NCBI GenBank assembly: GCA_934168325.1
Contig: CAKPNG010000003.1
Span: 918-64,917, forward strand
DNA length: 64,000 nucleotides
Origin: an uncultured Bacilli bacterium
GTDB lineage: Bacteria > Bacillota_I > Bacilli_A > RFN20 > CAG-826
Direction of reading: 5' to 3'
A program made the position numbers and the translations under genes. Positions 26,391-60,523 of the stretch are shown one piece after another (position 1 is the stretch's first letter; every line of letters begins with the position of its first letter). The notes beneath the pieces are model-generated. The model was not told the origin of the DNA and did not search any database. It worked only from the letters and a program-made list of their open reading frames with translations.

Positions 26391-26401
26391 AGGGGTTTAT
26401 T

Positions 26402-30559: not shown

Positions 30560-30866
30560 TTATTATTAAGATAAATACTTAAGTTAATAAAGTCTACAGA
30601 ATAAAAATGTGGATTTTTAATGTTGATTAAAAATGATGCGTTTTTATCAAATTTGCCACTATTAGCGGCAAAATTTGCATTAACTAATAGCTCAATTTTT
30701 ATCGAACGTATTAAAACCGCGATATTATAATTTGATAAAGGTTTCTTTTTTTATGTGATGTATATTTCATAAGTAATGAGTTAAAAGATTACTATTTTAA
30801 TGATAAATAATGACATAACTAGGTATATTTGTAGTATAATTTCAAATAGATTTAAAGGGAAAGATT

Positions 30867-34561: not shown

Positions 34562-34580
34562 TTAATAAAAAGTTAGTATT

Positions 34581-34612
34581 TAGGACACTATCTTAAGATA
34601 GTGTCCTATTTT
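34581..34612 (+). terminator. Strong intra-operon rho-independent terminator/attenuator between the SBP and ATPase genes
   Basis: TAGGACACTATC-ttaa-GATAGTGTCCTA is a 12-bp perfect stem followed by TTTT. Confidence 0.8.
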
Positions 34613-34630
34613 GTTAAAATGGAGTATTTT

Positions 34631-36124: not shown

Positions 36125-36144
36125 TATAGTTAGGAGAGATATTT

Positions 36145-37890: not shown

Positions 37891-38259
37891 ATGGTATTAG
37901 AAATTTTATTTATATCGTTTGCTTTAGGAATTGTAACTAATTATGTATTAGCTATTAAATATCTAAGAGGATTAAGAGGTGAACTTCAAGAAATGAACGA
38001 TACAGTTCTTATTCCTTGCGGTATTTTATGGGGATCAATAGTTTATATTTTATTTTTCTTTATCTTTAAAGAAGTTAGATATAAAGACTATGAAAATAAA
38101 TATCGACTTATTATTTCTCAATCTATATTTTTAGTTTTACAAATTACTTTAGTTATTGTTTTAGGTGTATTAGGTTATTTAAAATTACCTACTAATACAC
38201 CAAATGAAGAAACTACTACTTTATTAATCAATATCATCAATAGTTTTATCTCTTATTGA
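37891..38259 (+). CDS. Small hypothetical membrane protein (3-4 helices)
   Basis: The track start at 37840 falls inside the terminator hairpin, so I use the ATG at 37891. The sequence is hydrophobic and I found no recognisable motif. Its 3' end overlaps the convergent gene by 36 nt. Confidence 0.35.
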   Translation: MVLEILFISFALGIVTNYVLAIKYLRGLRGELQEMNDTVLIPCGILWGSIVYILFFFIFKEVRYKDYENKYRLIISQSIFLVLQITLVIVLGVLGYLKLPTNTPNEETTTLLINIINSFISY

Positions 38260-39039
38260 TTCTAAAAATGTTAAGAATTCAATAATTTGAGAAGGTGAAG
38301 AATCTTCATTAATAGAAATGGTTATTTTCTCGTTTTTTTCTATTTGAAATGTTGAATATAAAAATAAAGTATCTAAATTAACTTCTCTATCAACTATTTT
38401 ATGGTATCCAAAAGGCTTAAAAATAGATAAATAAGATTTAATATCTTTTTCTTTTTTAATGAAATGAGAGTGATAATTTAATAAAGAGAAGATATAAAAA
38501 GATGTTTCATCATCAATTAATATAATATCATCATGATTTTCAAATATATTATTTAAAGGAACAATTTCTTTAAAATCATCAAGAGATTTTAAAGATTTAT
38601 ATAAATCAGTGTTAGTATCAAATTTATCAATTAAACCTAACGATATTTCTTTATCATTTATATGTGTTAAATAATATTTTTTAACTTGATTATATTTTTC
38701 TATTATTGAGTCAATAGATGAGTCTTTTTTATAAAAAAGAAATAGTTTTTTTGTTCTATTAATGGTATCATCATAGATTCTAAAATAAGTATAATTATCA
38801 TTTTGTTTTAATTTTTCAAATGATTCATATGGTTTTATATAATAAGTAATATTTTTTAAATCAGAATCATCGAATTTATTACGTCTACGGACGTTTTTTA
38901 AATCTTCTAATGAAGGATATTCTAAGGCATCAGCTTTTAAAAATATTTCAATATTTCCTTTTATATTACTATAAGAACTTAAAGCTTCACTTATAACATG
39001 TTTATTTTTAAAATCATTGATATCTATATATATTTTCAT
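38224..39039 (-). CDS. Hypothetical cytoplasmic protein, unknown function
   Basis: I prefer the ATG at 39039, with AGGAG 9 nt upstream on the - strand (MKIYIDINDFKNK...). The track extends to 39075. It is the only - strand gene in a 30-kb + strand block. I recognised no motif. Confidence 0.55.
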   Translation of the reverse strand: MKIYIDINDFKNKHVISEALSSYSNIKGNIEIFLKADALEYPSLEDLKNVRRRNKFDDSDLKNITYYIKPYESFEKLKQNDNYTYFRIYDDTINRTKKLFLFYKKDSSIDSIIEKYNQVKKYYLTHINDKEISLGLIDKFDTNTDLYKSLKSLDDFKEIVPLNNIFENHDDIILIDDETSFYIFSLLNYHSHFIKKEKDIKSYLSIFKPFGYHKIVDREVNLDTLFLYSTFQIEKNEKITISINEDSSPSQIIEFLTFLESIRDKTIDDID

Positions 39040-39184
39040 TTTTATAACTCCTATATCTCTCAAATACTCTAACATTATAACATAAATGTAATCGATATTA
39101 ATTTTCTTATTATATAAAAAATGAATAAAATAATAGCTATATTATGCGATAAAACTTTGTTTTTAAAGCAATTAAAACATATTT

Positions 39185-39199
39185 ACTAAATCGTTTTAG
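39185..39199 (+). promoter_or_regulatory. LacI-family operator O1 (upstream of -35)
   Basis: ACTAAATCGTTTTAG has a central CG and AAA/TTT arms. It is the exact reverse complement of the 15-mer at 39243-39257. Confidence 0.6.
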
Positions 39200-39206
39200 A
39201 AAAATA

Positions 39207-39235
39207 TTTACAAACGAATTTTAATGTTGTATAGT
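39207..39235 (+). promoter_or_regulatory. Putative sigma-A promoter of the LacI-controlled operon
   Basis: TTTACA (39207-39212), a 17-nt spacer and TATAGT (39230-39235), with TG immediately upstream of the -10 box. Confidence 0.5.
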
Positions 39236-39242
39236 AAAGTTA

Positions 39243-39257
39243 CTAAAACGATTTAGT
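39243..39257 (+). promoter_or_regulatory. LacI-family operator O2 (between -10 and the RBS)
   Basis: CTAAAACGATTTAGT is the reverse complement of O1. Extended to ACTAAAACGATTTAGT it is a 14/16 symmetric palindrome. Confidence 0.6.
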
Positions 39258-39270
39258 TGGAGCTAATAAT

Positions 39271-41238
39271 ATGGCAAATTTATCGCTTAAACACATTTAC
39301 AAAATATATGAAAACGGCACTAGAGCTGTTGATGATTTTAATTTAGAAATTAAAGATGATGAATTTATAGTTTTTGTAGGACCTAGTGGATGCGGTAAAT
39401 CTACTACTTTAAGAATGATTGCAGGGCTTGAAGAAATTACTGCAGGAGATTTTTATATTGATGGTGTTTTAGCTAATAATTTAGAACCAAAAGATCGTGA
39501 TATGGCGATGGTTTTCCAAAATTATGCTCTTTATCCACATATGTCAGTTTATGATAATATGGCTTTTGGATTAAAAATTAGACATGTTAATAAAGAAGAA
39601 ATAGATAAAAGAGTTCATGAAGCTGCTAAAATTTTAGATATTGAAAATCAATTAGATAAAAAACCTAAAAATATGAGTGGTGGTCAAAGACAACGTGTTG
39701 CTTTAGGTAGAGCCATCGTTAGAAAACCTAAAGTATTTTTACTTGATGAGCCTTTAAGTAATTTAGATGCTAAACTAAGAAGTTCAATGAGAAGTGAAAT
39801 AACTAGATTGCATAATGTTTTAAAAACTACTTTTATTTATGTTACTCATGATCAAGTTGAAGCGATGACTATGGGTAGTAGGATTGTTGTTATGAAAGAA
39901 GGTGTTATTAAACAAGTTGATACACCAATGAATTTATATGATTATCCTGAAAATATATTTGTTGCTGGATTTATTGGAACTCCTCAAATGAATTTTATTA
40001 ATGCTAAATTAGATTATGATAAAGAAGAAATATTATTAAAAACTATTTTTAAAGATATAAGTTGTTCTATATCTGATATTTCTAAGATTGATAAATTAAA
40101 TATTATTAAGAAAAAAGATATTGTAATTGGAGTTAGACCTGAACATATTTCAATATGTAATAAAGATGATATTAATGCTTTTGAATGTGAAGTTGTAGTA
40201 ATTGAGAATTTAGGTAATGAAGCTAATATTATTGTAGAAACTACTTCTAATAAAGAGAAATTAGTTATTAAAACTATTAGAAATGATTTATTAAATGTAG
40301 GTAGTCATATTTATATTAAATTTAATATTAATAAAATACATCTATTCTTAAAAGAAGATGAACATACTTTATTAAATAGAATTCCAAAATCATTTACTAT
40401 TAATGCTAAATTATTTAATAAAGAATTAACTTTATTAAATAATAAAATAATATTAAATGATTATTTATATAATAAGATTAAAGATAATAAAGAATTATTA
40501 TTAAATATACCTTTAGATGCTTTGCATATTGGTAATGAATTTGAATTAATTATTACTAAAAAAGAAAAGATTAATAATAAATGGTTATATGAAGTTAAAT
40601 TAAATGATGAATATTTATATTATGCTGATGATAATTATATTGATGGAGATAAATTAAATATATCAATAGATTTATCTAAAGTTAGTTTTTATGATATTAA
40701 TGGTAATTTAATATTAGATAGATTAAATAAAGATAATATAATTGATGGTGAATTAACTGAGATTAAAAAGAAATTACCTTGTAAGAAAAATAATTTAGTT
40801 GATGTTGATTTATATAATAAATATTTATTAGCTTTATCTAATAATGATACTAATTTACTAAAAGAATTAAATATTAAAGAAAAAGTAAGAAAAGTATTTA
40901 ATTATAAGTTATTAAATACTGAAATAGAAACGTCAATAGAAAATATAATTAAAATTTATGGTTTATTAGGAAAGAAATTTTATTTACATCATATTGGCTA
41001 TATTTCAAATGCTGATAATTTAAAAATAGAAGAAAGAGGGGAGATTAGAGGGGTTATTGAAGAAATAATCGACTTTAATATTTCTAAATATTATAAAGTT
41101 AAATTATTAGATTTAGATAAAACTATAATAGTAAAAGATAACGATAATAATTGTAATATAAATGATAATGTCAATATATTAATTGATAAAGATCATATTG
41201 GTGTTATTGATAAAGACTTTAATGTGAGGTTAATTTAA
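39271..41238 (+). CDS. MsmX/MalK/UgpC-type ABC ATPase with a ~295-aa C-terminal extension
   Basis: It has a canonical NBD ([50 protein letters not shown]). The TOBE-like domain ends at ...NINKIHLF (about 40350). A further ~295 aa of Asn/Lys/Ile-rich sequence follows with no motif I recognise. Confidence 0.85.
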
Positions 41239-42248
41239 TGGGTGTCACAATAAAAGATATTGCAAAAGAATGTAATTGCTCAATAACTTCCGTTAGCTTT
41301 GTTTTAAATGATAAAAGTGATTTAGTAGGTAAAGAAACTGCTGAAAGAATTTTAGCTACTTGTAAAAAATATAATTATAAACCTAATTATATTGCTGCTG
41401 CTTTAAAAAATAAAACTACTAAAACAGTTGGTATATTAATTCCTGATATTGAAAATAGTTATTATGCTCGAATTATTAAATGTTTAGAAAATTTATTAAA
41501 AGAAAAAGGATATTCATTAATATTCGCTGATTCTGGTTATAATTTTGATCAATTTGAAAAGAATGTAATTGATATTACAAATAGATCAATTGATTATTTA
41601 ATAATTGTTCCACCAAGTTTATTCCAAGAAGTAGATGAAGAAAAAATTAATAGTGTTGCTAAAATGATTACTGTCCCTTATGTAATTTTAGATAGAAAAA
41701 TATCATTTGGAGATTGTCCTATTATTATTAATGATGATATTAAAGGTGGATATTTAGCTACTAAATATTTAATTGATTTAGGACATAAAAAAATTGCTTG
41801 TATTACTGGACCTAAAAATATTTCTTCATCATTAGAAAGATTAAAAGGTTATAAAAAAGCTTTAAAAGAAGCTCATATTCCTTTTGATAATAGTTTATTG
41901 GTAGAAGGAAATTATAGATTTGAAGGATCTATTAATGTTGCTAAAGATATTATTTTAAATAAAAAAGCCGATGCAATCTTTGCTTTTAATGATTTAAGTG
42001 CTTATGCTGTATATAAAATAGCTAATGATAATGATATTAAAATTGGTGAAGATTTATCTTTAGTTGGATTTGATGATAACCAATTTTCTGGCTTAATATC
42101 TCCAGGACTTACTAGTGTAAAACAAAATATTGAAGGTTTATGTAAAACTGTGATAAAGAAATTAATGAGTGGTAATCAAACAAATAATACAACAAAGATT
42201 GAACCAACATTAACGATTAGAGGAAGTGTAAAAAATGTTAAGTCTTAA
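41238..42248 (+). CDS. LacI/GalR-family transcriptional repressor
   Basis: It has the N-terminal HTH VTIKDIAKECNCSITSVSFVLN and a periplasmic-binding-protein-like effector domain (LVGFDD). The start overlaps the upstream stop (TAATG). Confidence 0.85.
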   Translation: MGVTIKDIAKECNCSITSVSFVLNDKSDLVGKETAERILATCKKYNYKPNYIAAALKNKTTKTVGILIPDIENSYYARIIKCLENLLKEKGYSLIFADSGYNFDQFEKNVIDITNRSIDYLIIVPPSLFQEVDEEKINSVAKMITVPYVILDRKISFGDCPIIINDDIKGGYLATKYLIDLGHKKIACITGPKNISSSLERLKGYKKALKEAHIPFDNSLLVEGNYRFEGSINVAKDIILNKKADAIFAFNDLSAYAVYKIANDNDIKIGEDLSLVGFDDNQFSGLISPGLTSVKQNIEGLCKTVIKKLMSGNQTNNTTKIEPTLTIRGSVKNVKS

Positions 42249-43227
42249 GTTAAAAAAGAAAATCAAACCTTATGATGAAGCATTAAAAACTATTTCTCCA
42301 TTAGCTAGACATCATAAAGAGAAGAAATGGAATAAAAGTAGTATTGAATTAATGACTATGGTTTCTTTTGGAATAGTTTTTATTGCAATATTTGCTTATT
42401 TACCAATGTTTGGATTAATTTTAGCTTTTAAAAGTGGTGATGGATATTTAAATATTATGCAAGCAATATTTGACTCAAGTTGGGTTGGATTTGATAATTT
42501 TAAAACATTTTTTGAAGATCCTGAATTTAGTAACGTTATGTTAAATACATTAGGATTAAATATTTTACAATTATGTATTAATTTTCCATTACCTATATTT
42601 TTTGCAATATTATTAAGTGAATTACCTTGGAAAAAGATACGTAAAACTATTCAAGTTATTACTTATTTTCCTTATTTTTTAAGTTGGATTACTTATGGTG
42701 CAATTATTTTAGCTTTAATAAATAGTGATGGAATTATTAATGTAATATTACTTAAAACTGGAATTATCGATCAAGCAATTAATTTTGGAGAACCTCAATA
42801 TTTTTGGGCAACTATTATTATAACTTCTTTACTTAAAGGTATGGGTTGGGGAAGTGTAATTTATGTTGCTGCTATTGCTGGTATTGATCCACAATTATTT
42901 GAAGCTGCTGATATGGATGGTGCAAATAGATTTTATAGAATTTTCCATATCACAATTCCTTCAATTGCGCCTACTATAATTTTATTCTTTATTTTGTCAG
43001 TCAGTGGATTATTAAATAATGGCTTTGATCACATATATACCTTCCAAAACCAGATTAATTTATCGAAATCGGAGGTTTTAGATACCTATATTTATAAGTA
43101 TGGAACTGTCAATCTACAATACTCTTATACGACAGCTGTTGGCTTATTTAAATCAATTGTTGCAGTTATTTTATTAGGCTGTGGAAACTTTGTTGCTAAG
43201 AAAACAACAGGAAGTGGGATTTTCTAA
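42235..43227 (+). CDS. ABC sugar permease (LplB/YteP-like)
   Basis: It has the EAA loop LFEAADMDGANRFYRIFHITIPSI and is a paralogue of 7306-8334. Confidence 0.85.
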   Translation: MLSLKLKKKIKPYDEALKTISPLARHHKEKKWNKSSIELMTMVSFGIVFIAIFAYLPMFGLILAFKSGDGYLNIMQAIFDSSWVGFDNFKTFFEDPEFSNVMLNTLGLNILQLCINFPLPIFFAILLSELPWKKIRKTIQVITYFPYFLSWITYGAIILALINSDGIINVILLKTGIIDQAINFGEPQYFWATIIITSLLKGMGWGSVIYVAAIAGIDPQLFEAADMDGANRFYRIFHITIPSIAPTIILFFILSVSGLLNNGFDHIYTFQNQINLSKSEVLDTYIYKYGTVNLQYSYTTAVGLFKSIVAVILLGCGNFVAKKTTGSGIF

Positions 43228-44150
43228 TGGTTAAGCATAAGATATATAAAAAGAATCAATTAATGATTGGAAGTAATGGAAGAAAACAAAAGAAGCATAC
43301 TTTTGATTGGATAAATTTAGTTGTTTTAAGTGTCTTTGCTTTAGCTAGTATTTATCCTTTAATATACGTTATTGCTGGTTCATTTAATGAAGGCAGTGAT
43401 TATATTAATGGTGGTATCTGGTTATATCCTCGTGTATTTTCTTTAGAAAATTATCAAGTTGTTTTAAATGATGCTAGATTATGGAAAAGTTATGGAATAA
43501 CTATTGCTAGAACTGTTATTGGAACTATTGCTAGTGTTTTATACACTGCAGTTGTTGCTTATGCAATGAGTAGACCTAATCTAGTTGGTAAACCTATTAT
43601 TTATAGATTCTTTATTATTACAATGTTTTTTGGTGGAGGACTTATTCCTTATTTCTGGGTTATTAATTTATTAGGTTTATTTGATAATTTCTTAGTTTAT
43701 ATAATTCCTGCTTTATTCTCTGTTTATAATATGTTAGTTTTTGTAAATTTCTTTAAAGGAATACCTGAAGAAATTCATGAATCTGCTGTAATGGATGGAG
43801 CTAGTGAATTTAAAATATTCTTTTCAATTATGCTTCCTTTAAGTGGTCCTGTTTTATCAACTGTTGCTTTATGGAATGCCGTGGGTCACTGGAATTCTTT
43901 TTTCGATACGATGATTTATACATCTAGTGAGAATTTATGGACTTTACAATATTATTTAATGAAAGTTATTAAAGAATCATCAATGCCTGCTGCTGGAGTT
44001 AATTTACCAATTGAATTATTGAATAAAATTGCTCCTGAAACTGTCTCTTTAGCAGCAATTATGGTTAGTGTTATTCCAATATTTATTTTATATCCAGTAA
44101 TTTTAAAAACCTTAACAAAAGGAGTAGTAGTTGGCTCTTTAAAAGGTTAA
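43227..44150 (+). CDS. ABC sugar permease (LplC/YtcP-like)
   Basis: It has the EAA loop IHESAVMDGASEFKIFFSIMLPLSGP and is a paralogue of 8336-9241. Confidence 0.85.
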   Translation: MVKHKIYKKNQLMIGSNGRKQKKHTFDWINLVVLSVFALASIYPLIYVIAGSFNEGSDYINGGIWLYPRVFSLENYQVVLNDARLWKSYGITIARTVIGTIASVLYTAVVAYAMSRPNLVGKPIIYRFFIITMFFGGGLIPYFWVINLLGLFDNFLVYIIPALFSVYNMLVFVNFFKGIPEEIHESAVMDGASEFKIFFSIMLPLSGPVLSTVALWNAVGHWNSFFDTMIYTSSENLWTLQYYLMKVIKESSMPAAGVNLPIELLNKIAPETVSLAAIMVSVIPIFILYPVILKTLTKGVVVGSLKG

Positions 44151-44165
44151 TAGGAGGTTATCTTT

Positions 44166-45905
44166 ATGCATAAAAAAATTACTTTATTATTTTTAATGTC
44201 ATTAATGACTTTAAGTTTAGTTAGTTGTGGTAATAATAAAACTGCAACTTATCCTAATTTTCCTAATACTCCAGGCGATAAAGATTCTTGGGAATATCTT
44301 AAAGATGAAAATGGAAAAGTCGAAAGTTGGGATTTAGAATGGTATGTTAATGATTCTTCATTTTCTTGGAATACATATGGAAATGATCGAGTTAGTGAGA
44401 TAATTAAAGAAAAAACAGGTGTTAATATTAAATTTGTTTCTCCTGTTACTGATGATAATCAAAAATTATCTACTTTAATTAGTGGTAATAAATTACCTGA
44501 TATGATAAGTGTTCAATCTTGGTATAGTCAATGTTCTCAACTTGCTAATCAAGGATATTTATATTCTTTAGATGGTTTAATTGAAAGATGGGCTCCTTCT
44601 TTTAAAAATAAGATCCAAGAAGATATGTGGAATTATTTTAAAGAAGGTGATGGTAATACTTATGGTGTACCTAATTTTGCTTATTCTACTAAATATATAA
44701 GTGATGATGAAAAATTAGAACCTAATGGATGTTTAATGGTTAGAGAAGATTGGTATAAAGAAGCTTATCTAGCAGGTTATGATATGACAACTACTAAATC
44801 TTTTATTCAAGGTTGTAAATATATTAAAAATAAATATGAAGAAGCTATTCCTTTCCAATTAGATGCTTTTACTGGTGAAGGAAATGACTCAATTGATTGG
44901 CTAGCTCAATATTTTTGTTCATCTTATGAAGATAAAGATGGTAATTATTTAGATATTAGATTAACTGATCGATATAAAGAAATGCTTGGTTTTTTAAATG
45001 AATGTAATAAAGAAGAAATTATTAGACCAAGTAATTATTCTGATAAAGCTGCTCAAATTAGAACTAATATATCTAGAGGTAATTGTTTTGTAACTGCTGT
45101 TACTCCTCAAGATTATCAAGCTGCATTTTTAAATGCTTATGCTGATAATAAAACATATGTTCCTTTAATATTAAAAAATAAAGATAATGAAGCTCCTATT
45201 TTACAAGATATTTCTGGTAATGGTTATTTATTAACAATGATTACTAGAAATTGTAAAAGACCTGATAAAGCTATTAAATTATTAGAATTTTTATATAGTG
45301 AAGAAGGTCAAAGATTAGTTGCTTTTGGTGTTGAAGGTGAATCTTATACTTGGAATGATACTCATACTGAAATTAGTTGGACTGATCGATATATTAGTGG
45401 TGTTAATGGTAATAAAGAAGATCAAGCTTGGATCAATAGTTTAGGTTTATATAACATGACTTTAGTTATGAATTTAGCTTATATTAATAAGCTTAAACCA
45501 TTAAATGGTCGTAAAGATAAAGATATTTATATTGATAATATGAAAAGACCTTTAACTCCTTATTCATATAATTTTAAACCAACTTTCTTAAAGCATGATA
45601 CCGGTGATAAATCTTATTTTAATGTAACAACAACCGCTAATAAGATTAAAACTAAATGGGCTGAAGCTTTAATTAAGATTATTAGAGCAGAAAATTACGA
45701 AACAGAATATGATAGTGCTATTAATTATGCTAAAAGACAAGGTTTAGAAAAAGTTATTACATTTTATAAACAAAGTTATACAAATACTAAAAAAATATTA
45801 GGCGTTACTTATGGATATCCTAAAAATAATCCATCTTATAAAGAACCTACTTTTGTAACTAGTAATGGAGATTTTTCTTATTGGAGAGGAGCAACACATG
45901 AATAA
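44166..45905 (+). CDS. ABC transporter solute-binding lipoprotein (large family-1 SBP)
   Basis: It has a GGAGG RBS. The lipobox is LMSLMTLSLVSCGN. It is 579 aa and adjacent to the permeases. Confidence 0.8.
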   Translation: MHKKITLLFLMSLMTLSLVSCGNNKTATYPNFPNTPGDKDSWEYLKDENGKVESWDLEWYVNDSSFSWNTYGNDRVSEIIKEKTGVNIKFVSPVTDDNQKLSTLISGNKLPDMISVQSWYSQCSQLANQGYLYSLDGLIERWAPSFKNKIQEDMWNYFKEGDGNTYGVPNFAYSTKYISDDEKLEPNGCLMVREDWYKEAYLAGYDMTTTKSFIQGCKYIKNKYEEAIPFQLDAFTGEGNDSIDWLAQYFCSSYEDKDGNYLDIRLTDRYKEMLGFLNECNKEEIIRPSNYSDKAAQIRTNISRGNCFVTAVTPQDYQAAFLNAYADNKTYVPLILKNKDNEAPILQDISGNGYLLTMITRNCKRPDKAIKLLEFLYSEEGQRLVAFGVEGESYTWNDTHTEISWTDRYISGVNGNKEDQAWINSLGLYNMTLVMNLAYINKLKPLNGRKDKDIYIDNMKRPLTPYSYNFKPTFLKHDTGDKSYFNVTTTANKIKTKWAEALIKIIRAENYETEYDSAINYAKRQGLEKVITFYKQSYTNTKKILGVTYGYPKNNPSYKEPTFVTSNGDFSYWRGATHE

Positions 45906-46818
45906 TACATTAAAAAAAGTAATCTTAGATACTGATATTGGTGATGATATTGATGATTCTTTTGCTTTATTACTTTTATTAGAAAGTCATAAATTTGATT
46001 GTTTAGGTGTTACTACTGTTTTTAGAAATTCAATAAAAAGAGCAAAGATGGCTAAATGTCTTATTGCTTCTTTAGGATATGATATTAAAGTTTATCCAGG
46101 TATAGATAATCCTATTAAACAAGATATTAATCATTTAATTTCTAAAGAAATAAAAGCAAAAGAAGTAGTTGATGAAGATGGTAAATATTTATTCCCTCAA
46201 TGGGATGAGAAAATGAAAGATTATCGAATAGAAAGCACTAATGCAGTTGATTTTATTATTGAATCTATTCATAAATATCCTAATGAAGTAACTTTAATTC
46301 CGATTGGTCCAATGACTAATATTGCTTTAGCCATTAAAAAAGATCCTTCTATAATTCCTTTAATTAAAGAAATTAGATTTATGGGAGCAGGGCTTGATTT
46401 TAATTTTGTAGAATGGAATATATTTTGTGATCCTGAAGCAGCAAGTATTGTTATTAATAGTGGTGTTAAAAAAATAGTTGGTATTACTTTAAATACTACT
46501 AGTTTAACTACTTTAACTGATAAAGAAGTTCATGATTTAAAAAATAATAAATCAAATGCAATTAAACTTGTTTATGAAGCGATGATGAAATGGTTTAGCC
46601 ACTATCAATTTGCTAATCCTGTAATGCATGATCCTTTAACAGTAGCAAGTTTAATTGATGAAGATATAGTGACATTAAAAAAGGCTAAATTAGATGTAGA
46701 TTTATCTAGAGATGGTTATACATTTATAAATGATAATAAATCTAGTGAAATTTATATTTCTACATCTTTGAATAAAGAGAAGTTCTTTAGTTTATTTAAA
46801 GAAATTCTTGATATTTAA
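45898..46818 (+). CDS. Nucleoside hydrolase (IUNH) family protein, cytoplasmic
   Basis: The ATG at 45898 follows GGAGAGGAG (the track starts at 45865). The N-terminal Asp cluster VILDTDIGDDIDDSFALLLLL corresponds to the DxDxxxDD calcium/ribose-binding fingerprint. There is a later WNIFCDPEAA motif. Confidence 0.7.
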   Translation: MNNTLKKVILDTDIGDDIDDSFALLLLLESHKFDCLGVTTVFRNSIKRAKMAKCLIASLGYDIKVYPGIDNPIKQDINHLISKEIKAKEVVDEDGKYLFPQWDEKMKDYRIESTNAVDFIIESIHKYPNEVTLIPIGPMTNIALAIKKDPSIIPLIKEIRFMGAGLDFNFVEWNIFCDPEAASIVINSGVKKIVGITLNTTSLTTLTDKEVHDLKNNKSNAIKLVYEAMMKWFSHYQFANPVMHDPLTVASLIDEDIVTLKKAKLDVDLSRDGYTFINDNKSSEIYISTSLNKEKFFSLFKEILDI

Positions 46819-46842
46819 TGCAAATTAGAAAGGAGTGATAAT

Positions 46843-49377
46843 ATGACTAAAATTGCATTAGGTTTATCATTTGCAAGTACTGTTGCAATGATTGTAGCAC
46901 CATTTAGTACTAAAAAATTAAAAACTGAAACTAGTCTTGATGGTGATTTATATGGAGCAGCTCACATTAAATGTAGTAAAAAAAGAGATGCTGATAGTGG
47001 TAATGTCTTTGAAATTAATGCTGAACGTAATGGAAATTCTAATTTTTCAGGGGATGGGATCTATTTAAGAATAAGAAATTATACAAGTACAGATACACCT
47101 ATTACTTTTAAGATTAATTCAACTAATGGTGTTATAATTGCGCCTACTACTAACGTTAAACAAACTTATTATACAGCTGATGGAGTGGAAACTGATGGTA
47201 TTGCTCCTCGTGGTTGGGGAAATTACATGATGCTACCTGCTAATTTTGATGGTTTTATTTATATGAATTACACCACTCAAATGTCTAAAATTGCAGGGGA
47301 AGGTAATTTTACAAGTAATTCTATTTGGAGAATATATGTTGAATATAGCGGATTTTATGATCATTATGCAGATTTTGCTATAGGTGATATATTTACAAAT
47401 ACTAAAAGTATTTTAGATACTTCAGAATTATCTACTGAAGAATTTAATAAAACATTTATTAATCAATGCCCTGATTATCAAAGTGTTACTCAATTAGAAA
47501 GAGCAGATTCTTTTGTACCTGATGGTGATTTTAAAGGTGGAATTAATTATAAATTAGGAAGTTATGGCGGATTTATGGTTAAATTCGATTCATTTGATTT
47601 TACTGATGGAGTTTATATTCGTATTAAAAATAATTTAGATAAGATTACTTGGCTCATGATTCATGCTGCTAGTGATGTATTTGCTAATAGATCAATTATT
47701 AAAGCAGGTGGAGAAGTATCTTATTACGATAATACTGGTAAATTTAGTAAGAAAGTAACTGCTAATGAATGGAAATATTTTGAATTACCTGCTAATTTTG
47801 ATGGTTATTTAAGTTTTAATAAAGATGCTTTAGAAGGTGATACTGGTTGGGCTGGATCAAATTATAATATTAAAACTACTAATGCAATTTATTTTGAAGC
47901 TGATGGTATCGATATTAATGTTGGTGACATATTCTCTAAAGTTAATAAAGCATATGATGGTAGTGAAATATATGCTAGTGTTGCTTTAAGTAATCATTTT
48001 GAAACTTGGAGTGGTGGAACTGGTACTATTTTAGAAGGCAGTAAAGAATTACCTATCGTTTTATTTGATTATACTAAGATTAATTTAAGTGGCGATGTTG
48101 AAAATGGTGTTAATATTACTAGTAATAAAAATAGTGATAGTAGTGTATTTTCTACTGCAACTGCTAGATTTAAAGAAAATATTAATTTAAGTGAAGGTGA
48201 AGCAATATCTATTAGTTTTGAAGGTGCTGGAAATTATGCTTTCCAATTAGAATTTGTTGATGCTAACGATAATATTTTAAATATGCCAAGTGCTTCTAAT
48301 AGTACTAGAAATCCAATTTATTTTATTAGTAATGGTGTAGCTACTCCAATGAATCATACTACTGGAGATCCTAATACTATTCACACAATCGAAGGAAAAG
48401 GAAATATTGTTATTGAAAAGAGTTTCTTAAATCAAAAAGCTGGTGAAAGTTTTGATTGGAGTAAAGTTAAAGGATTTAATGTTATTTGTCATACTTTCTA
48501 CGATTCTGGATTAAATATTTCTTTTGGTGATATAGGTGTTATTTCTCAAACTGATTTAAAACAAACTCTTGTTTATAGAGTTAGTGAAGTAGAATATGAT
48601 GGAGTTTATAGTGCTTTAGATGCATTTATGAATGTTAATAAAGTTTATACTTCTATTCCATCTAGTTGGATTGGTGATGTTAAAATTATTGATTCATTAA
48701 ATTATAAAGATGATAAGACTTTAAAACAAAATGTTACTTATGATATAGGTGATAATGCTTGTAGTTATAATAAAGAAAAAGACGGTATGTTTGTTCATAT
48801 TGGACCTTTTGAATCCGGACATACTTATGGTAATTATATGTGTTTAGGTATGTTTGATAAAAATGTAACTAGTGACCGTAAAATTGCTTATAGAACGAAC
48901 GAAGAAAATAAAGAATATGCTAAAGGTATTACTTTCTATTGTGAAAATAGATCAGTTAAAGAAATTGGTTTAACTTTACAATTTGATGAATTAATTCCTG
49001 GTAAAACTACTACTGAAAGATGGTGTATTACTGGATATCCTGCAATGTATTTAGCTTATGACGTTGAAAAAGATATTGATTACATGATGTATTCAAAATC
49101 TGATCAAGTTCAAATTCCTGTCGGATTTAAAGGATATATTAGAGTTCCATTTACATCTTACACTGTTCCTGATTGGAATAAAGGTATGGATGGAGTCGAT
49201 GCTATTTTAAATTTAGATAATTTTTCAGGTAATTTCTTCTTAACTAGTGATAATACTAGATATGAAGATTTAGAATATTTTATTAAGAATGTTGGCTTAT
49301 ATTTTAATGATACATATAAAACTACTTTCTTATCAAAAGAAAATACTATTAAAACTAATATGGGGTTAAAAGACTAA
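46843..49377 (+). CDS. Large secreted or membrane-anchored protein built from four degenerate ~140-180-aa modules, unknown family
   Basis: It has an AAAGGAG RBS and an N-terminal hydrophobic segment IALGLSFASTVAMIVAPF with no lipobox Cys. The internal repeats are GIYLRIRNYT...LPANFDGFIYMNY...FAIGDIF and GVYIRIKNNL...LPANFDGYLSFNK...INVGDIF. Two more divergent copies end in ISFGDIGV and IKNVGLYF. Confidence 0.75.
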   Translation: MTKIALGLSFASTVAMIVAPFSTKKLKTETSLDGDLYGAAHIKCSKKRDADSGNVFEINAERNGNSNFSGDGIYLRIRNYTSTDTPITFKINSTNGVIIAPTTNVKQTYYTADGVETDGIAPRGWGNYMMLPANFDGFIYMNYTTQMSKIAGEGNFTSNSIWRIYVEYSGFYDHYADFAIGDIFTNTKSILDTSELSTEEFNKTFINQCPDYQSVTQLERADSFVPDGDFKGGINYKLGSYGGFMVKFDSFDFTDGVYIRIKNNLDKITWLMIHAASDVFANRSIIKAGGEVSYYDNTGKFSKKVTANEWKYFELPANFDGYLSFNKDALEGDTGWAGSNYNIKTTNAIYFEADGIDINVGDIFSKVNKAYDGSEIYASVALSNHFETWSGGTGTILEGSKELPIVLFDYTKINLSGDVENGVNITSNKNSDSSVFSTATARFKENINLSEGEAISISFEGAGNYAFQLEFVDANDNILNMPSASNSTRNPIYFISNGVATPMNHTTGDPNTIHTIEGKGNIVIEKSFLNQKAGESFDWSKVKGFNVICHTFYDSGLNISFGDIGVISQTDLKQTLVYRVSEVEYDGVYSALDAFMNVNKVYTSIPSSWIGDVKIIDSLNYKDDKTLKQNVTYDIGDNACSYNKEKDGMFVHIGPFESGHTYGNYMCLGMFDKNVTSDRKIAYRTNEENKEYAKGITFYCENRSVKEIGLTLQFDELIPGKTTTERWCITGYPAMYLAYDVEKDIDYMMYSKSDQVQIPVGFKGYIRVPFTSYTVPDWNKGMDGVDAILNLDNFSGNFFLTSDNTRYEDLEYFIKNVGLYFNDTYKTTFLSKENTIKTNMGLKD

Positions 49378-49378
49378 T

Positions 49379-50482
49379 ATGAAAACAAATCGAGTTATAT
49401 TTTATTTCTTATCGACATTACTTTTGGTTAGTTGTGGTAATAAAGTTAAAACACCTATTTATGAATTAGGTGATAAAAAAGATGTGATGGGTAGTGGATT
49501 ATTATTTAGTGAAACTATTGGATTTAATACTAAAGATGCTACTATTTTTGAAGAAAATGATGAAAGATTTATTATTTATGATGCTAATGAAGTAAGTAAA
49601 GGTAATCAAGTATTTGCTATTAGAAAAGGTGTTAAAGAAAATAATAAATGGGTTTATAAAGAAAAAAATATTATATTTAAAGGTAATGAAGAAGGCTGGG
49701 ATAAATATATTTATCAGCCTAGTATCATTAAAGGTAAATTTAATTATAACAATGAAGAATATAAATATTTATTAGCTTATCAAGGTAATAATAGTAATGA
49801 TAATTACAATAATCATATTGGTTTAGCTGTTACTAATGATTTATTTTCTAATTTTATTAGAGTAGGTAATACTCCTATATTAACTAATCCTACTATATAT
49901 AGTGGTAGTTTTGGATTTGGTAGTCCTAGTTTAACTTCTATTAATAAAGAAGGTAAAGTAATGTTATCTTATTCTTTTGGTGAAACTAATTTATCAGGTA
50001 CTAGAGTAATGGAATTAGATCTTTCTAATCTTAATAAAATTAATAGTGAAGTAGGTTATACAGAACTTAATGCTAGTGGATTAAAATTAAGAGAAGATGG
50101 AATTATATCTAATGCGACATTTATTTTTAATGATGATTATAGTAAAGCTTATTTAGTTAATGATGGAATGCCAAGTAGTAATGCTCCTGGTCAAGCTAAT
50201 GCTATTGAAGTAGCTAGTGCTAATAGTTCAATTATTTATGATATTAATACTAAATGGAATTCTATTAAAAATATTATGGGTAGTGATACGATGATTAAAG
50301 AAGATGAAACTTCTTTAGGATGGGATGAAATTTATAGTGGAACTATCGTTACTAATGAATATGGTTTAGTTAATAAAGATAGTAAGAAATTAGAAGTTAT
50401 TTATTCTACTTATCAAGAAGGTATAGAAGATTCTAAATTCACTGCTCAATTATGTTCTTTTGAGGTTAATTTAAGTGAATAA
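49379..50482 (+). CDS. Surface lipoprotein, beta-propeller-like (GH43/GH32-superfamily-like?), unknown specificity
   Basis: The lipobox is FLSTLLLVSCGN. The recurring blade-like motifs are YIYQPSIIKG, IGLAVTNDLFSNF and GSPSLTSINKEGKVMLSY. It is a paralogue of the next gene. Confidence 0.35.
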   Translation: MKTNRVIFYFLSTLLLVSCGNKVKTPIYELGDKKDVMGSGLLFSETIGFNTKDATIFEENDERFIIYDANEVSKGNQVFAIRKGVKENNKWVYKEKNIIFKGNEEGWDKYIYQPSIIKGKFNYNNEEYKYLLAYQGNNSNDNYNNHIGLAVTNDLFSNFIRVGNTPILTNPTIYSGSFGFGSPSLTSINKEGKVMLSYSFGETNLSGTRVMELDLSNLNKINSEVGYTELNASGLKLREDGIISNATFIFNDDYSKAYLVNDGMPSSNAPGQANAIEVASANSSIIYDINTKWNSIKNIMGSDTMIKEDETSLGWDEIYSGTIVTNEYGLVNKDSKKLEVIYSTYQEGIEDSKFTAQLCSFEVNLSE

Positions 50483-51674
50483 GAAATATTTAATATTAAG
50501 TAGTATATTATTTATGCTTACTGGTTGTAATAAAGTAGATAATCAAGATAATATTATTCCTACTAAAAAGGAAGATTTTATTCCTGAAGTAGGGGAAGTT
50601 AGATTATTATTTGAACATGGGACAATTGGGGAAGATAAATATTATGATTATTGTCCATCAATATTTATCGAAAATAATGAATCTCATGTTTATTATTGTA
50701 CTAATAAAGATGAAGGTAATGTAACTGACTATGTTGGTTATAAAAATGGGAAAATAATTAATGATAAAGTAGTTTATCCTAGTGAAATGAATTATGTTTT
50801 AAGTCATGGGGAACATGGATCTTGGGATTCTAGACATGCTTGTGATCCTAGTGTTATTAAAGGTGAATTTAAATTTCATAATGAAACTTATAATTATTTA
50901 ATGGCTTATTTAGGATGTGTTCCTAGTGACTGTACACTTAATGAAACTGGTATTGCAGTTAGTAAAACTCCTAGTGGTCCTTGGATAAAATGTGATTTTA
51001 AAAGTGATGGAGTAACTAAAATTAATCCCCTTGTTAAATATAGTGAATTTGATTGTAATGACTCTAGCTGGGGAACAGGTCAACCTTCTTTAGTATCGGT
51101 TGATAAAAAAGGAAGAGTATTATTATTTACTACTATTGGAGCAAAAAATGGTACTTTTACTAATTTAAGAGAATATGATTTTTCTGATATTGATAATTAT
51201 AAATTAATTAGAGAAAGAAAAGCGATTAATACAACAGGTATTAGAGGTACTGGAAGTAATGCTAATATGATTAATAATGCTGATTTTGCTTATGATGAAG
51301 TTAAAAATAGAATCATAGTTAGTAAGCCTCGTCAATATTTTGGAACTGATGGTAAAGCACCTAATTTTATTGCTGATACGATTGATGTTTATTATATTGA
51401 TAATGATGGAAGTAGTGTTGGTGATGTATTCTTTAAAGGAAATAATACGACTGCATCGTGGAAATTAATAGGTAGTATTAATCAAGAATTAACTGGATTT
51501 TTAAGAAATCATAATACTGGATTAATTACTGATGAATTTGCTAGAATTATTCAAGATAAGAATTTAGGTGTAGCTTTTACTAGAAGTGATGAATCAGCGG
51601 GTAGTAGTGATTGGGGTCATTTATCTACTTATAGAATTTATGCTACTGGTATGAAATTACCTAGTGATTATTAA
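50475..51674 (+). CDS. Surface lipoprotein, beta-propeller-like paralogue
   Basis: It has a GTG start with GAGG 8 nt upstream. The lipobox is SSILFMLTGCNK. The motifs are WDSRHACDPSVIKGEF, TGIAVSKTPSGPW and GQPSLVSVDKKGRVLLF. Confidence 0.35.
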   Translation: MNKKYLILSSILFMLTGCNKVDNQDNIIPTKKEDFIPEVGEVRLLFEHGTIGEDKYYDYCPSIFIENNESHVYYCTNKDEGNVTDYVGYKNGKIINDKVVYPSEMNYVLSHGEHGSWDSRHACDPSVIKGEFKFHNETYNYLMAYLGCVPSDCTLNETGIAVSKTPSGPWIKCDFKSDGVTKINPLVKYSEFDCNDSSWGTGQPSLVSVDKKGRVLLFTTIGAKNGTFTNLREYDFSDIDNYKLIRERKAINTTGIRGTGSNANMINNADFAYDEVKNRIIVSKPRQYFGTDGKAPNFIADTIDVYYIDNDGSSVGDVFFKGNNTTASWKLIGSINQELTGFLRNHNTGLITDEFARIIQDKNLGVAFTRSDESAGSSDWGHLSTYRIYATGMKLPSDY

Positions 51675-51684
51675 TTAAATTTAT

Positions 51685-52392
51685 ATGGGTAAAAAGACAC
51701 TAGAAGGGAAATTAAATAGTCCTTTATATAGATATTCTAAGCTTGCTTTTGATTTATTAATGCTTAATATAATCTTTATTTTAGTAAGTGTATTATCTTT
51801 ATTTAGTTTATTTTTTCCTGGTTTAGTGTCTTTACATACCATTATGAATAATATAATTAATAATAAAGATGATGAAAATGTTTATAAAACTTTCTTTTTA
51901 GAGATTAAACGTCAATGGAGTTTTTCTTGGAGAATTGAAGTTTTAGGAATAATCATCTTATTAATTATTGGTGTTATTATTTATTTTGATTTTGTTGTAA
52001 TAGTTAATACTAAAGTTAGTTATATTGGTTATATTTCTTTATGTTTTATTATTCCAATATTTTTAGTATTACTTAGTATATTTATTAATTTAATGTTATT
52101 TAATAATTATTATAAAGATGATACTTTCGTGATGATGATTCAAAAATCAGCGTTAATATCGCTTAAAAAGAAATTATTAACTTTTATTAATTTAATAATA
52201 TTTATATGTTTTTTTGTAATTTTATTTTTTATACCTTATATTGCTCCTTTTATTTCGTTTAGTTTATATATTTATATTATTGAAGCTATTAATCAAAAAG
52301 CGTTTATAGAAATATCTAATAACGAAAAAGAAAGAGCATTGATGGTTGAGAATTTATTTTTACCGATGGTTATTGAGGAGAAAGATAAATGA
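51685..52392 (+). CDS. YesL-like (DUF624) integral membrane protein
   Basis: It has about 5-6 helices. The N-terminal part YRYSKLAFDLLMLNIIFILVSVLSLFSLFFPG resembles DUF624 proteins that accompany CUT1 sugar transporter loci. Confidence 0.5.
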   Translation: MGKKTLEGKLNSPLYRYSKLAFDLLMLNIIFILVSVLSLFSLFFPGLVSLHTIMNNIINNKDDENVYKTFFLEIKRQWSFSWRIEVLGIIILLIIGVIIYFDFVVIVNTKVSYIGYISLCFIIPIFLVLLSIFINLMLFNNYYKDDTFVMMIQKSALISLKKKLLTFINLIIFICFFVILFFIPYIAPFISFSLYIYIIEAINQKAFIEISNNEKERALMVENLFLPMVIEEKDK

Positions 52393-53273
52393 AGAAGTGT
52401 TTAGTAGTTGGTAGTTTAAATATGGATTATACTGTTTATTTAAATAGTGATTTCCCTATTAATGGTGAGACTTGTTTTGGAAGAAATAGATTTATTCAAC
52501 CTGGGGGAAAAGGTGAAAATCAAGCAGTAGCTTTAGCTAAATCTAAAATGTGTGATGTGACAATGATTGGTGCTATTGGTAATGATAGTGATGGAACTAT
52601 TATTAAAGATACTTTAATTAAATATGGTGTTAAACCAGTTCTTAAAGTATGTGAAGATAGCGAAACTGGTAATGCGACAATTGTTATTGATAAAAATAGT
52701 GAGAATAAGATCATTATTATTGAAGGAAGTAATGGTAAATTAACTAGTAAAGATATTGAATTAAAGTTATTTGATGAAATGGATTATTTAATAATTCAAA
52801 ATGAAATTAGTGAAGAAGTTAATGAATTTTGTATTAAAGAAGCTAAAGCTAGAAATAAAATAGTTATTTATAATCCTGCTCCTTATAGAGCTATTAAGGA
52901 AGAGTTATATAGTTATATTGATTATTTTATTCCTAATGAAATTGAACTTAAAATGTATACTAATCTTGATGATATTAATGAATCTATCGATTATTTATTA
53001 TCTAAAGGAATTAAAAATGTATTAGTTACTTTAGGTACTCAAGGTAGTTTATTTAAGTCTATTGATCAAGAAATAAAAGTAGGATGTTATAAAGTTAATG
53101 CTATTGATACAGTCGCTGCTGGAGATACTTATGTTGGATATTTTACTAGTTCATTAGCTAGTGGATATTCTATTAAAGAATCTATGGATATAGCTAGTAA
53201 AGCTAGTTCAATTACAGTAAGTAGAAAAGGAAGTGTAATATCTATTCCTTATAAAGAAGAAGTTTTTAAATAA
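52389..53273 (+). CDS. rbsK: Ribokinase (PfkB family)
   Basis: It has GGKGENQAVALAK (the GGKGANQA motif) and DTVAAGDTYVGYF (the PfkB C-terminal signature). At 294 aa it has the expected length. Confidence 0.8.
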   Translation: MKKCLVVGSLNMDYTVYLNSDFPINGETCFGRNRFIQPGGKGENQAVALAKSKMCDVTMIGAIGNDSDGTIIKDTLIKYGVKPVLKVCEDSETGNATIVIDKNSENKIIIIEGSNGKLTSKDIELKLFDEMDYLIIQNEISEEVNEFCIKEAKARNKIVIYNPAPYRAIKEELYSYIDYFIPNEIELKMYTNLDDINESIDYLLSKGIKNVLVTLGTQGSLFKSIDQEIKVGCYKVNAIDTVAAGDTYVGYFTSSLASGYSIKESMDIASKASSITVSRKGSVISIPYKEEVFK

Positions 53274-53395
53274 TTAATAATATTTTTAATATATCTTTTT
53301 AAGTTTCTAGATTAATTAGAAATATTATTTTATATTGCAATAAAATATGAAACTACCTATACTAGTATTATAAACTAGATAAAGGAGTATTCGAT

Positions 53396-54121
53396 ATGAG
53401 TTTAAAAGAAGTTGAACTTCCTAATTATAAGCTTAGACATGAATTATGGAATAGTATTACTCATGGTTTAGGTGCGTTATTTGGTATTTTTGTTTTAATA
53501 TTTTCTTTAATTAAAATAGTTAATATAGGTTATGATATAACTTTACCTAGTAGTAATCCAAATAGTTATACATCTTATATTATTAAGATTATATCGATTA
53601 TTATTTATAGTGTTTCTTTAATGATTACCTATACAATTAGTTGTGTATATCATGCTTTAGCTAAAAATAATGGGAAGAAAGTATTAAGAATTATAGATCA
53701 TGATACTGTTTATTTATTAATTGCAGGATCTTATACTCCATTTTGTTTAGTAAGTTTAAGAGATGTTACTTTGTGGGGAGTTATTCCTTATTCAGGGTAT
53801 ATTATATTTAGCATAGTATGGATATTAATAACTATAGGTATTGTATTTAATTCTATTAATATTAATAAATATAAAATAATTAGCTTTGTTATGTATATTG
53901 TAGCGGGGTGGATTATTATTTTAGAAGCTAAAGAATTATTAAATGCAATTGGTTTTAATGGGTTTATGTTTTTATTATTTGGTGGGATTAGTTATAGTTT
54001 AGGATCTATTTTATATGGGATAGCATCTAAAAAATCTATATGGTTTCATACTGTATTTCATATATTTGTTTTAGTAGGTACTATCTTACAATTTATATCT
54101 ATATATTTATATGTAATATAA
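53396..54121 (+). CDS. Hemolysin III / PAQR-family membrane protein
   Basis: It has an AAGGAG RBS and seven helices. The motifs are WNSITHGLGALFGI, IDHDTVYLLIAGSYTPF and FHTVFHIFVLVGTILQF. Confidence 0.8.
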   Translation: MSLKEVELPNYKLRHELWNSITHGLGALFGIFVLIFSLIKIVNIGYDITLPSSNPNSYTSYIIKIISIIIYSVSLMITYTISCVYHALAKNNGKKVLRIIDHDTVYLLIAGSYTPFCLVSLRDVTLWGVIPYSGYIIFSIVWILITIGIVFNSININKYKIISFVMYIVAGWIIILEAKELLNAIGFNGFMFLLFGGISYSLGSILYGIASKKSIWFHTVFHIFVLVGTILQFISIYLYVI

Positions 54122-54124
54122 ATA

Positions 54125-56059: not shown

Positions 56060-56062
56060 AAT

Positions 56063-57886: not shown

Positions 57887-58024
57887 ATAGCCCCCATTCT
57901 ATTTGATATTTTACTTATTGTAAAGAGGGATAAATCTTTTCTAATTTTTTTTATTGTTTTTAAGTAAAAAGTCTACTAAATAAGGATATTTTTTTTAGAA
58001 TTATATTATATAAATTATCTTTAA

Positions 58025-58054
58025 TTGACAATTTTTATATATAAAAATTATATT
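58025..58054 (+). promoter_or_regulatory. Candidate promoter of the hydrogenase operon
   Basis: TTGACA (58025-58030), an 18-nt spacer and TATATT (58049-58054). AT-rich context makes chance matches likely. Confidence 0.3.
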
Positions 58055-58139
58055 ATATAAAATCTTATCCATGGTTAACTTACATTTTTCTTTTGTTATT
58101 TGAAAGGGGTTACATTATAATCTAAAAGATAGGAGAAAT

Positions 58140-58634: not shown

Positions 58635-58635
58635 G

Positions 58636-60513: not shown

Positions 60514-60523
60514 GGAGACTAAT

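Follow-up and report, generated by a model that had tools for sequence, protein, structure and literature searches.

The question raised by the locus described here is which compound is used by an operon that combines an oligosaccharide-type ATP-binding cassette (ABC) importer with a nucleoside-hydrolase-like enzyme of the IUNH family, a ribokinase, and several surface proteins. The locus occupies positions 39271-53273 of a 64,000-nt stretch of DNA from an uncultured Bacilli bacterium (the window, to which the coordinates of the operon and its surroundings refer; G+C content ~25%). The answer favored here, to which about an even chance of being right is assigned, is that the 11 genes form a LacI-repressed operon with which a gut Firmicute, wall-less or of low GC, forages for a glycan, and that this operon functions like a Gram-positive counterpart of the ribose utilization system of Bacteroides.

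The proposed pathway would begin outside the cell, where the secreted 844-aa protein, which is built of jelly-rolls resembling carbohydrate-binding modules (CBMs), would hold an extracellular glycan at the cell surface while two membrane-anchored propeller lipoproteins with the fold of glycoside hydrolase (GH) family 43 would cut it to oligosaccharides. The fragments, as the predicted ligand of the 579-aa solute-binding protein (SBP), would then be imported through two permeases energized by an extended MsmX-type ATPase. In the cytoplasm, the IUNH-family enzyme, which carries the motifs of its family, is predicted to remove a beta-D-ribofuranosyl unit, and the released ribose would be converted to ribose-5-phosphate by a protein of the ribokinase family. 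An RbsR-like LacI protein would stay bound to a palindrome on either side of the promoter until an inducer arrives; candidates for the natural inducer are ribose and an imported fragment.

Operon structure and conservation

The 11 open reading frames (ORFs) are co-oriented and either overlap or are spaced by no more than 24 bp, and no terminator was seen inside 39271-53273. The gene order and coordinates put forward in the original prediction were borne out by ORF calling and by Pfam and NCBIfam searches, and its view of a single LacI-type operon is supported by the overlaps and short gaps and by candidate palindromic operators on both sides of the promoter. Ten of the 11 genes end in TAA; the DUF624 gene alone ends in TGA, within an ATGA overlap with the ribokinase start. 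Because TGA serves as a stop and Trp is read from TGG, the standard bacterial code applies and an alternative genetic code was ruled out. An Rfam scan of the window returned no riboswitch or other RNA. Identical DNA was found in two public metagenome assemblies, and the metagenome-assembled genome SUG431 ('Mollicutes bacterium') is 96% identical across the 399-aa propeller gene and 94-99% identical across the remaining genes of the locus.

For comparison across genomes, one genome per GTDB species was scanned with a profile of the propeller family, which yielded 79 loci; these were taken with 10-kb flanks, many being cut, and their gene counts were derived from tblastn and all-against-all clustering. 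The hosts are uncultured Bacilli, Mollicutes-like bacteria, Erysipelotrichaceae, Izemoplasma, Acholeplasma-type organisms, and Clostridia (Christensenellaceae, Gallimonas, Oscillospiraceae), and the sample origins include rumen, hindgut, chicken, mouse, and human. In 'cleanbin' assemblies, three loci of Firmicutes type (L019, L027, and L031) carry the names Bacteroidaceae, Parasutterella excrementihominis, and Alistipes onderdonkii, probably as a result of mis-binning. The propeller family is represented in 71 loci, the 844-aa family in 57, the IUNH family in 47, the permeases in 45-47, the SBP in 45, and LacI in at least 35, and no further enzyme family was recurrent among the 79 loci. The count for the 844-aa family includes a 1056-aa Izemoplasma protein in the equivalent position, a distant homolog recognized by profile comparison only (probability 99.4%).

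A core consisting of the ABC importer, the IUNH enzyme, the big surface protein, and two or three propellers is present in ~47 species-level genomes of Bacilli and Clostridia, with the order LacI, permease, permease, SBP, IUNH, big protein, and 2-3 propellers retained while protein identity ranges from ~85% to ~25%. Conserved synteny had been named at the outset as the way to check the locus, and the same gene order does recur in dozens of species-level genomes, with proteins that are 30-80% identical; a chance juxtaposition of genes was rejected on this ground.

The regulator belongs to the LacI/GalR family, as judged by its HTH_LacI domain, its core resembling periplasmic binding proteins, and the palindromic operator candidates with a central CG. 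Two NCBIfam RbsR models gave 234 and 203 bits, both under their cutoffs, as was the PurR match, and the UriR model NF051853 gave 132 bits against a cutoff of 550. The proximity to RbsR-type models is the sole hint that the locus might be induced by ribose. The 16-bp palindrome pattern has four matches in the window at two or fewer mismatches, compared with 0.32 expected. An operator-like site with two mismatches lies at 33906-33921 inside the SBP gene of a neighboring importer and is probably a chance occurrence. In three further species (L012, L042, and L071), the core TAAAACG[AT]TTTA is found immediately 5' of the ATPase ortholog, the product of which is 52-56% identical to the window ATPase, and this conserved palindrome is the footprint that would be expected for the LacI protein of the operon itself.

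Encoded proteins

The cytoplasmic enzyme matched PF01156 over its full length (200.3 bits, with a gathering cutoff of 34.2; profile positions 1-296 of 297), and solved nucleoside hydrolases matched it at E = 1e-31 to 1e-24. Its TN, EWNIFCDPEAA, and MHDP segments (EWNIxCDPEAA and HDP as motifs) align with the Ca2+- and ribose-binding positions of those structures. The Asp-rich loop reads DTDIGDDIDD, exceeding the canonical DxDxGxDD by two residues, and is invariant in 55 of 55 syntenic copies with overall identity down to 29%. The protein has no signal peptide and scored below the named equivalogs UriH, RihA, RihB, and RihC, the best being UriH (NF052221, 140 bits against a cutoff of 450), with RihC at 117 against 382. 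The family had been called correctly from the DNA; the start had been placed at 45865 and is most likely at 45898 (306 aa), which has a strong ribosome-binding site (RBS) and is used by the gene callers on two identical public contigs.

The assignment of the last gene as a ribokinase is based on solved structures, among which all 15 hits at E <= 1e-20 are named ribokinase (best E = 3e-46), and on the signature motifs GSxNxD, GGKGxNQA, and DTxAAGD, which align with those of solved ribokinases. Against the TIGR02152 equivalog model the protein reached 274.3 bits, close to the cutoff of 299.65 and below it, for a sequence from a very AT-rich, divergent lineage. A ribokinase gene was found on the downstream side in 20 of the 79 loci, and DUF624 in 17, together with the ribokinase. 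In L086 (16206-17795) the two form a single 529-aa ORF, through either gene fusion or the loss of a stop codon, and its halves share 44% and 47% identity with the window proteins. A different arrangement occurs on a Clostridia-type metagenome contig (L117), where the ribokinase gene lies directly upstream of the LacI gene and overlaps it, and six Clostridia-type loci that retain some upstream DNA open with a ribokinase C-terminus 67-73% identical to the L117 protein. A further locus variant (L207) contains PfkB. The apparent restriction of the ribokinase to one clade results from the 10-kb flank, which cuts loci, and its linkage in two independent arrangements makes it an integral, repeatedly retained part of the system. 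Independent transcription of the ribokinase gene, which the original prediction had named as damaging to its case, is not what this linkage indicates, given the overlap with DUF624, the single ORF in L086, and the second arrangement upstream of LacI.

The two small surface lipoproteins are 33% identical (E = 2e-22). An AlphaFold model was made for the 399-aa protein from 24 homologs, and Foldseek matched it to the five-bladed propellers of GH62, GH117, GH43, GH137 (BT_0996), and GH130 (E = 1e-9 to 1e-6, probability 1.0, TM 0.5-0.6). These families share the fold, but identity is 10-14% and their canonical catalytic residues were not recognizable. Neither window propeller belongs by sequence profile to a Pfam or NCBIfam family, among them GH43 (PF04616, clan GH-F), and a PDB sequence search with the 367-aa protein gave nothing useful. 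Weak similarity to GH117 and GH43 profiles was located in blade 2: sub-threshold GH43 matches were obtained for seven of 24 propeller relatives (best E = 1.8e-5, none reaching the gathering score), and a PDB profile search with the propeller found GH117 at E ~1e-3. No significant alignment was obtained by hhalign between the propeller profile and the true GH43 domain of protein P0313. When 1.84 billion cluster representatives were searched exhaustively with the profile, 703 members, or ~700 clusters at 50% identity, were retrieved at E <= 1e-3; with only 703 members, the family is compact and distinct and does not merge into GH43.

The 844-aa protein consists of three jelly-rolls (residues ~35-210, 211-398, and 415-592), which are homologous to each other (hhalign probability 98.5-100%), and a distinct C-terminal domain (596-844). 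The C-terminal domain is the most conserved part (mean column identity 0.65, compared with 0.45-0.52 in the repeat modules) and contains numerous Asp, Arg, Trp, and Tyr residues that are nearly invariant; its role might go beyond binding, for example as a jelly-roll enzyme. The protein has no Pfam or NCBIfam family and no PDB sequence match. When the whole model was submitted to Foldseek, the matches were solely jelly-roll binding folds, namely LNS/LG, CBM11 (TM ~0.6 on the target), and galectin, with no catalytic fold among them, and the model supports a role as a surface binding platform.

The original prediction had anticipated the propeller-like lipoproteins and the four modules of the 844-aa protein, and both descriptions were confirmed by the AlphaFold models, Foldseek, and the hhalign module comparison. 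Its statement that all surface proteins are of unknown family holds for the 844-, 367-, and 399-aa proteins and fails for the SBP, which is a member of SBP_bac_8 and SBP_bac_1. Likewise, its statement that no canonical CAZy glycosidase is recognizable is correct for sequence profiles only, the 399-aa model being a propeller like those of GH43, GH62, and GH117.

The importer is of the CUT1 type, as judged by its SBP_bac_1/8 protein, its pair of BPD_transp_1 permeases, and the TOBE domain of its MalK/MsmX-type ATPase. The closest solved relatives of the SBP by sequence are large binding proteins, namely the 'extracellular solute-binding protein family 1' chains 5GX8/5GUB (E = 5e-10), and AlgQ1/AlgQ2. 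The best NCBIfam match of the ATPase was UgpC-type (469 bits). Its recognized domains stop near residue 360 and are followed by a C-terminal extension of ~290 aa (40360-41238) that has no Pfam family, no sequence match among solved structures in a PDB search, and no BLASTP match to the TOBE region of the same protein. Long ATPases are also encoded by orthologous genes (L003, 652 aa; L086, 626 aa). The extension may comprise extra regulatory OB/TOBE modules, as two short motifs resemble the ends of TOBE domains.

Known systems and candidate substrates

The closest counterpart, described by Glowacki et al. (bioRxiv 10.1101/574913), is the rus polysaccharide utilization locus (PUL) of B. thetaiotaomicron (BT2802-BT2809), which encodes two ribokinases, SusC/SusD, RusGH, RusNH, a permease, and a regulator. 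RusGH is a surface lipoprotein glycoside hydrolase of unassigned family with weak, cation-dependent cleavage of p-nitrophenyl (pNP)-beta-D-ribofuranoside, and RusNH cleaves the same compound and is weakly active on nucleosides; LacI is the second most common type of regulator in Rus-like PULs of Bacteroidetes (10.1101/574913). Ribose-containing capsules and exopolysaccharides were proposed by the authors as targets, and ribose-scavenging loci give Bacteroides a diet-dependent fitness in colonization (10.1101/574913).

Rus and the window locus both combine a ribokinase, an IUNH-type hydrolase, a surface lipoprotein that is a glycoside hydrolase without an assigned family in Rus and has a glycoside hydrolase fold in the window, a transporter, and a dedicated regulator; in this sense the window locus, with its ribokinase and nucleoside hydrolase in a regulated unit with a surface protein of glycoside hydrolase fold, is of Rus type. 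The likeness drawn between the window propellers and RusGH is one of description and gene context. Whereas Rus has SusC/SusD and a RusT-type permease, the window locus has none of these and instead has a CUT1 ABC importer with a lipoprotein SBP, and it adds to the Rus pattern a four-module CBM-like protein, DUF624, and the extended ATPase. The hosts of window-type loci are Firmicutes (Bacilli, Mollicutes-like bacteria, and Clostridia), whereas the text of the Rus paper names no Firmicutes, Gram-positives, or ABC transporters (10.1101/574913). By this analogy, the window locus is regarded as the ABC-importer analog of the Rus PULs in Firmicutes. The expectation that such a system would be undescribed was not upheld, since the pairing of ribokinases, a nucleoside hydrolase, an unassigned surface glycoside hydrolase, and a transporter, sometimes with LacI, is already known from Rus PULs (10.1101/574913). 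Full-text literature searches found no paper containing 'ribofuranosidase' and none describing the window locus.

Concerning the substrate, a glycan is preferred over nucleosides because of the glycosidase fold of the propeller lipoproteins and the CBM-like build of the 844-aa protein. A polysaccharide bearing ribofuranose, such as a bacterial capsule, O-antigen, or exopolysaccharide, is the leading candidate. This is the first of the two substrate hypotheses in the original prediction, and it fits best, with ribose release as its predicted step. In its most complete form, in which the polysaccharide would come from neighboring microbes and the propellers would constitute a new family of endo- or exo-ribofuranosidases with the GH43-type fold, the jelly-roll protein a new CBM family, and the IUNH enzyme a cytoplasmic O-ribofuranosidase, the proposal is tentative and, taken as a whole, less likely than not.

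Several observations weigh against the ribofuranose-polysaccharide proposal. RusGH and RusNH are dispensable in B. thetaiotaomicron on every substrate tested (10.1101/574913), so that the analogy with Rus does not identify the substrate of the window locus. Among 151 non-redundant members of the propeller family, the only broadly conserved acids are D118 (invariant, in a WD motif), D210, D235, D270, D274, and D353, and the position of the catalytic-base Asp of GH43 is apparently taken by Cys60 in an alignment that is itself unreliable; with Cys at the apparent base site and few conserved acids, hydrolase competence is no more than plausible. The loop sequence of the IUNH enzyme is likewise not confined to this context. 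A pattern scan of JGI metagenomes found DTDIGDDIDD on at least 120 contigs (L087-L206), mostly of high G+C, in IUNH-like proteins of 320-360 aa, many of which have signal or Tat-like peptides and are encoded next to housekeeping genes (PGK, TIM, SecG, and aminotransferases). The motif was rejected as a marker of the locus type on account of this wide distribution beside unrelated genes. It appears to mark a broad IUNH subfamily with members that are often apparently secreted, and no description of it was found. Such apparent secretion would at least be in keeping with substrates besides cytoplasmic nucleosides, and the target of the window enzyme may be an O-riboside instead of a nucleoside.

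The remaining counterevidence comes from relatives of the propellers in Clostridia, where the family also forms the C-terminal domain of giant proteins of 2,020-2,032 aa (P0313, 2024 aa; L079, 352-6414; L082, 4871-10969) that join it to a bona fide GH43 domain and a GDSL esterase; two further proteins (P0315 and L083, 7030-10110) have weak dockerin matches under the Pfam cutoff. These fusions hint at an action of some propeller members on plant cell walls. Where propeller genes stand alone in Clostridia, their neighbors (SecA, PFL, tRNA synthetase, and leucine-rich repeat proteins) gave no clue to the substrate. The fusions and sub-cutoff dockerin matches, together with the origin of many host genomes in rumen or herbivore hindgut and the CE2-type esterase genes upstream within the window, are what could be expected if the propellers debranch hemicellulose or pectin, with the IUNH-fold enzyme recruited to another cis-2,3-diol furanoside (e.g., apiofuranosides) or to a minor decoration and the ribokinase added for a secondary product. 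Plant cell-wall glycans are not known to contain ribose. The ribokinase has kept its motifs and is linked in two independent arrangements, the active-site motifs of the IUNH enzyme are conserved, and no other sugar-catabolic enzyme recurs among the loci, all of which make the use of plant-fiber side chains unlikely, although it is the strongest competitor to the ribofuranose-polysaccharide proposal.

The nucleoside operon of C. glutamicum has the layout uriR-rbsK1-uriT-uriH and thus, like the window locus, a LacI-type regulator, ribokinase, transporter, and IUNH hydrolase in one unit. This likeness, the UriH and UriR models as nearest NCBIfam matches (far under cutoff), and a reduced-genome, Mollicutes-like organism plausibly dependent on salvage favor the second hypothesis of the original prediction, in which the importer would take up nucleosides, nicotinamide riboside (NR), ADP-ribose, or similar compounds for processing by the IUNH enzyme and ribokinase, the surface proteins freeing them from nucleic acids or cofactors. 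The fit is poor. The uri operon has a nucleoside permease, whereas the window locus has an oligosaccharide-type CUT1 importer with a 579-aa AlgQ-like SBP and a DUF624 partner, which is no known nucleoside-binding type, and three to four surface proteins, with glycosidase and CBM-like folds; moreover, no nuclease, phosphatase, nucleotidase, or nucleoside-type binding protein is encoded in the window locus or in any related locus. A salvage function is therefore considered quite improbable. Least probable, with only a slight chance, is that the surface proteins are non-enzymatic adhesins or lectins co-transcribed with an ordinary module for the uptake and catabolism of ribose or ribosides. The unmapped catalytic residues of the propellers, in which the canonical blade-1 Asp seems absent, and the exclusively binding-type folds of the 844-aa protein agree with such a role, but 2-3 propeller paralogs are kept beside the importer in ~47 genomes, several acidic residues are conserved family-wide, including the invariant WD, and domains of the family are fused to GH43 and esterase domains.

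The locus is also close to Gram-positive polysaccharide loci with LacI, a CUT1 importer, GH43-type enzymes, and DUF624/YesL, such as the yes cluster of B. subtilis and the arabinan/arabinoxylan clusters of bifidobacteria. The shared logic is extracellular depolymerization, import of oligosaccharides by a large SBP and two permeases with an MsmX-type ATPase, cytoplasmic exo-cleavage, and LacI control. The window locus differs in having an IUNH-fold protein in place of a CAZy glycosidase as the cytoplasmic exo-enzyme, a ribokinase as the endpoint, and an operon-encoded ATPase with a 290-aa extension. The locus draws attention to two protein families outside Pfam, to a distinctive IUNH subfamily that possibly acts on O-glycosides, and to the occurrence of the combination of ribokinase, IUNH enzyme, and surface protein of glycoside hydrolase fold in Firmicutes, with hosts that range from Bacilli and Clostridia of rumen and gut to Izemoplasma. 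The small, fixed set of one IUNH enzyme, 2-3 propellers, and one CBM-like protein makes the system cleaner than the variable PULs of Bacteroidetes for finding the substrate. It is well suited to experiments through its conservation, its limited number of enzymes, and the question of which compounds Rus-like systems degrade, without a surprising mechanism having been demonstrated; if the ribofuranose-polysaccharide proposal is true in its most complete form, a substrate and the enzymology of a Rus-like system would be defined for the first time in any phylum.

Feature coordinates and neighboring genes

The coordinates of the genes and regulatory sites are collected in Table 1. The promoter-like site was placed by consensus match alone, and such matches are frequent in AT-rich DNA; at 25% G+C the promoter and terminator scans were uninformative (93 promoter-like sites found, 144 expected). 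The hairpin at 53276-53329 was not picked up by the GC-dependent terminator scan.

Table 1. Genes and candidate regulatory sites of the operon, with positions in the window (MFE, minimum free energy; pLDDT, predicted local distance difference test; AF2, AlphaFold 2)
Feature	Position	Strand	Remarks
Candidate upstream LacI-type operator ACTAAATCGTTTTAGA	39185..39200	+	directly 5' of the -35 hexamer; reverse-complement twin of 39242-39257
Promoter-like site TTTACA-17-TATAGT	39207..39235	+	36 bp 5' of the first start codon; 10/12 consensus matches
Candidate downstream LacI-type operator ACTAAAACGATTTAGT	39242..39257	+	between the -10 hexamer and the RBS; perfect fit to the 16-bp palindrome pattern
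MsmX/UgpC/MalK-type ABC ATPase, 655 aa	39271..41238	+	Pfam ABC_tran, OB_MalK, and TOBE_2 over residues 21-359
LacI-family repressor, 336 aa, nearest named models RbsR and PurR	41238..42248	+	Pfam LacI plus Peripla_BP_1/3
ABC permease 1, 330 aa	42235..43227	+	BPD_transp_1; syntenic orthologs 53-81% identical
ABC permease 2, 307 aa	43227..44150	+	BPD_transp_1; syntenic orthologs 49-84% identical
Lipoprotein solute-binding protein, 579 aa, lipobox LVSC	44166..45905	+	SBP_bac_8, SBP_bac_1
Cytoplasmic IUNH-family hydrolase, 306 aa, predicted ribose-releasing	45898..46818	+	PF01156, E = 7e-59; longer ORF from 45865
Secreted/anchored all-beta protein, 844 aa	46843..49377	+	N-terminal hydrophobic segment; AF2 pLDDT 86.5
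Surface lipoprotein, 367 aa, lipobox LVSC	49379..50482	+	paralog of the 399-aa protein; propeller fold inferred from paralogy
Surface lipoprotein, 399 aa, lipobox LTGC, candidate glycosidase	50475..51674	+	predicted five-bladed beta-propeller; AF2 pLDDT 88.5
DUF624 (YesL-like) membrane protein, 235 aa	51685..52392	+	PF04854
Ribokinase, 294 aa	52389..53273	+	TIGR02152; start overlaps DUF624 stop (ATGA, 4 bp)
Possible AT-rich terminator hairpin followed by U-rich tract	53276..53329	+	MFE -12 kcal/mol, z = -1.9; weak

Upstream of the operon, a divergent 283-aa ORF without a family is located at 38224-39075 on the minus strand. It is preceded by a CUT2 monosaccharide-type ABC importer (33368-37818), composed of a Peripla_BP_4/Peripla_BP_7 binding protein, a double ABC ATPase, and a BPD_transp_2 permease, which by its family could take up free ribose or another monosaccharide. 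Farther upstream, a cluster of glycan-modifying genes (25236-31931) includes CE2-type GDSL esterases (25236-26390 and 30867-31931), a GDPD phosphodiesterase (26402-28339), and an NAGPA phosphodiester glycosidase (29114-30559). Downstream, at 53396-62305, the annotation of the identical contig (L001) lists an HlyIII-family membrane protein, minus-strand ABC exporter genes, and a gene group whose products have domains of [FeFe]-hydrogenase and NADH-dehydrogenase type.

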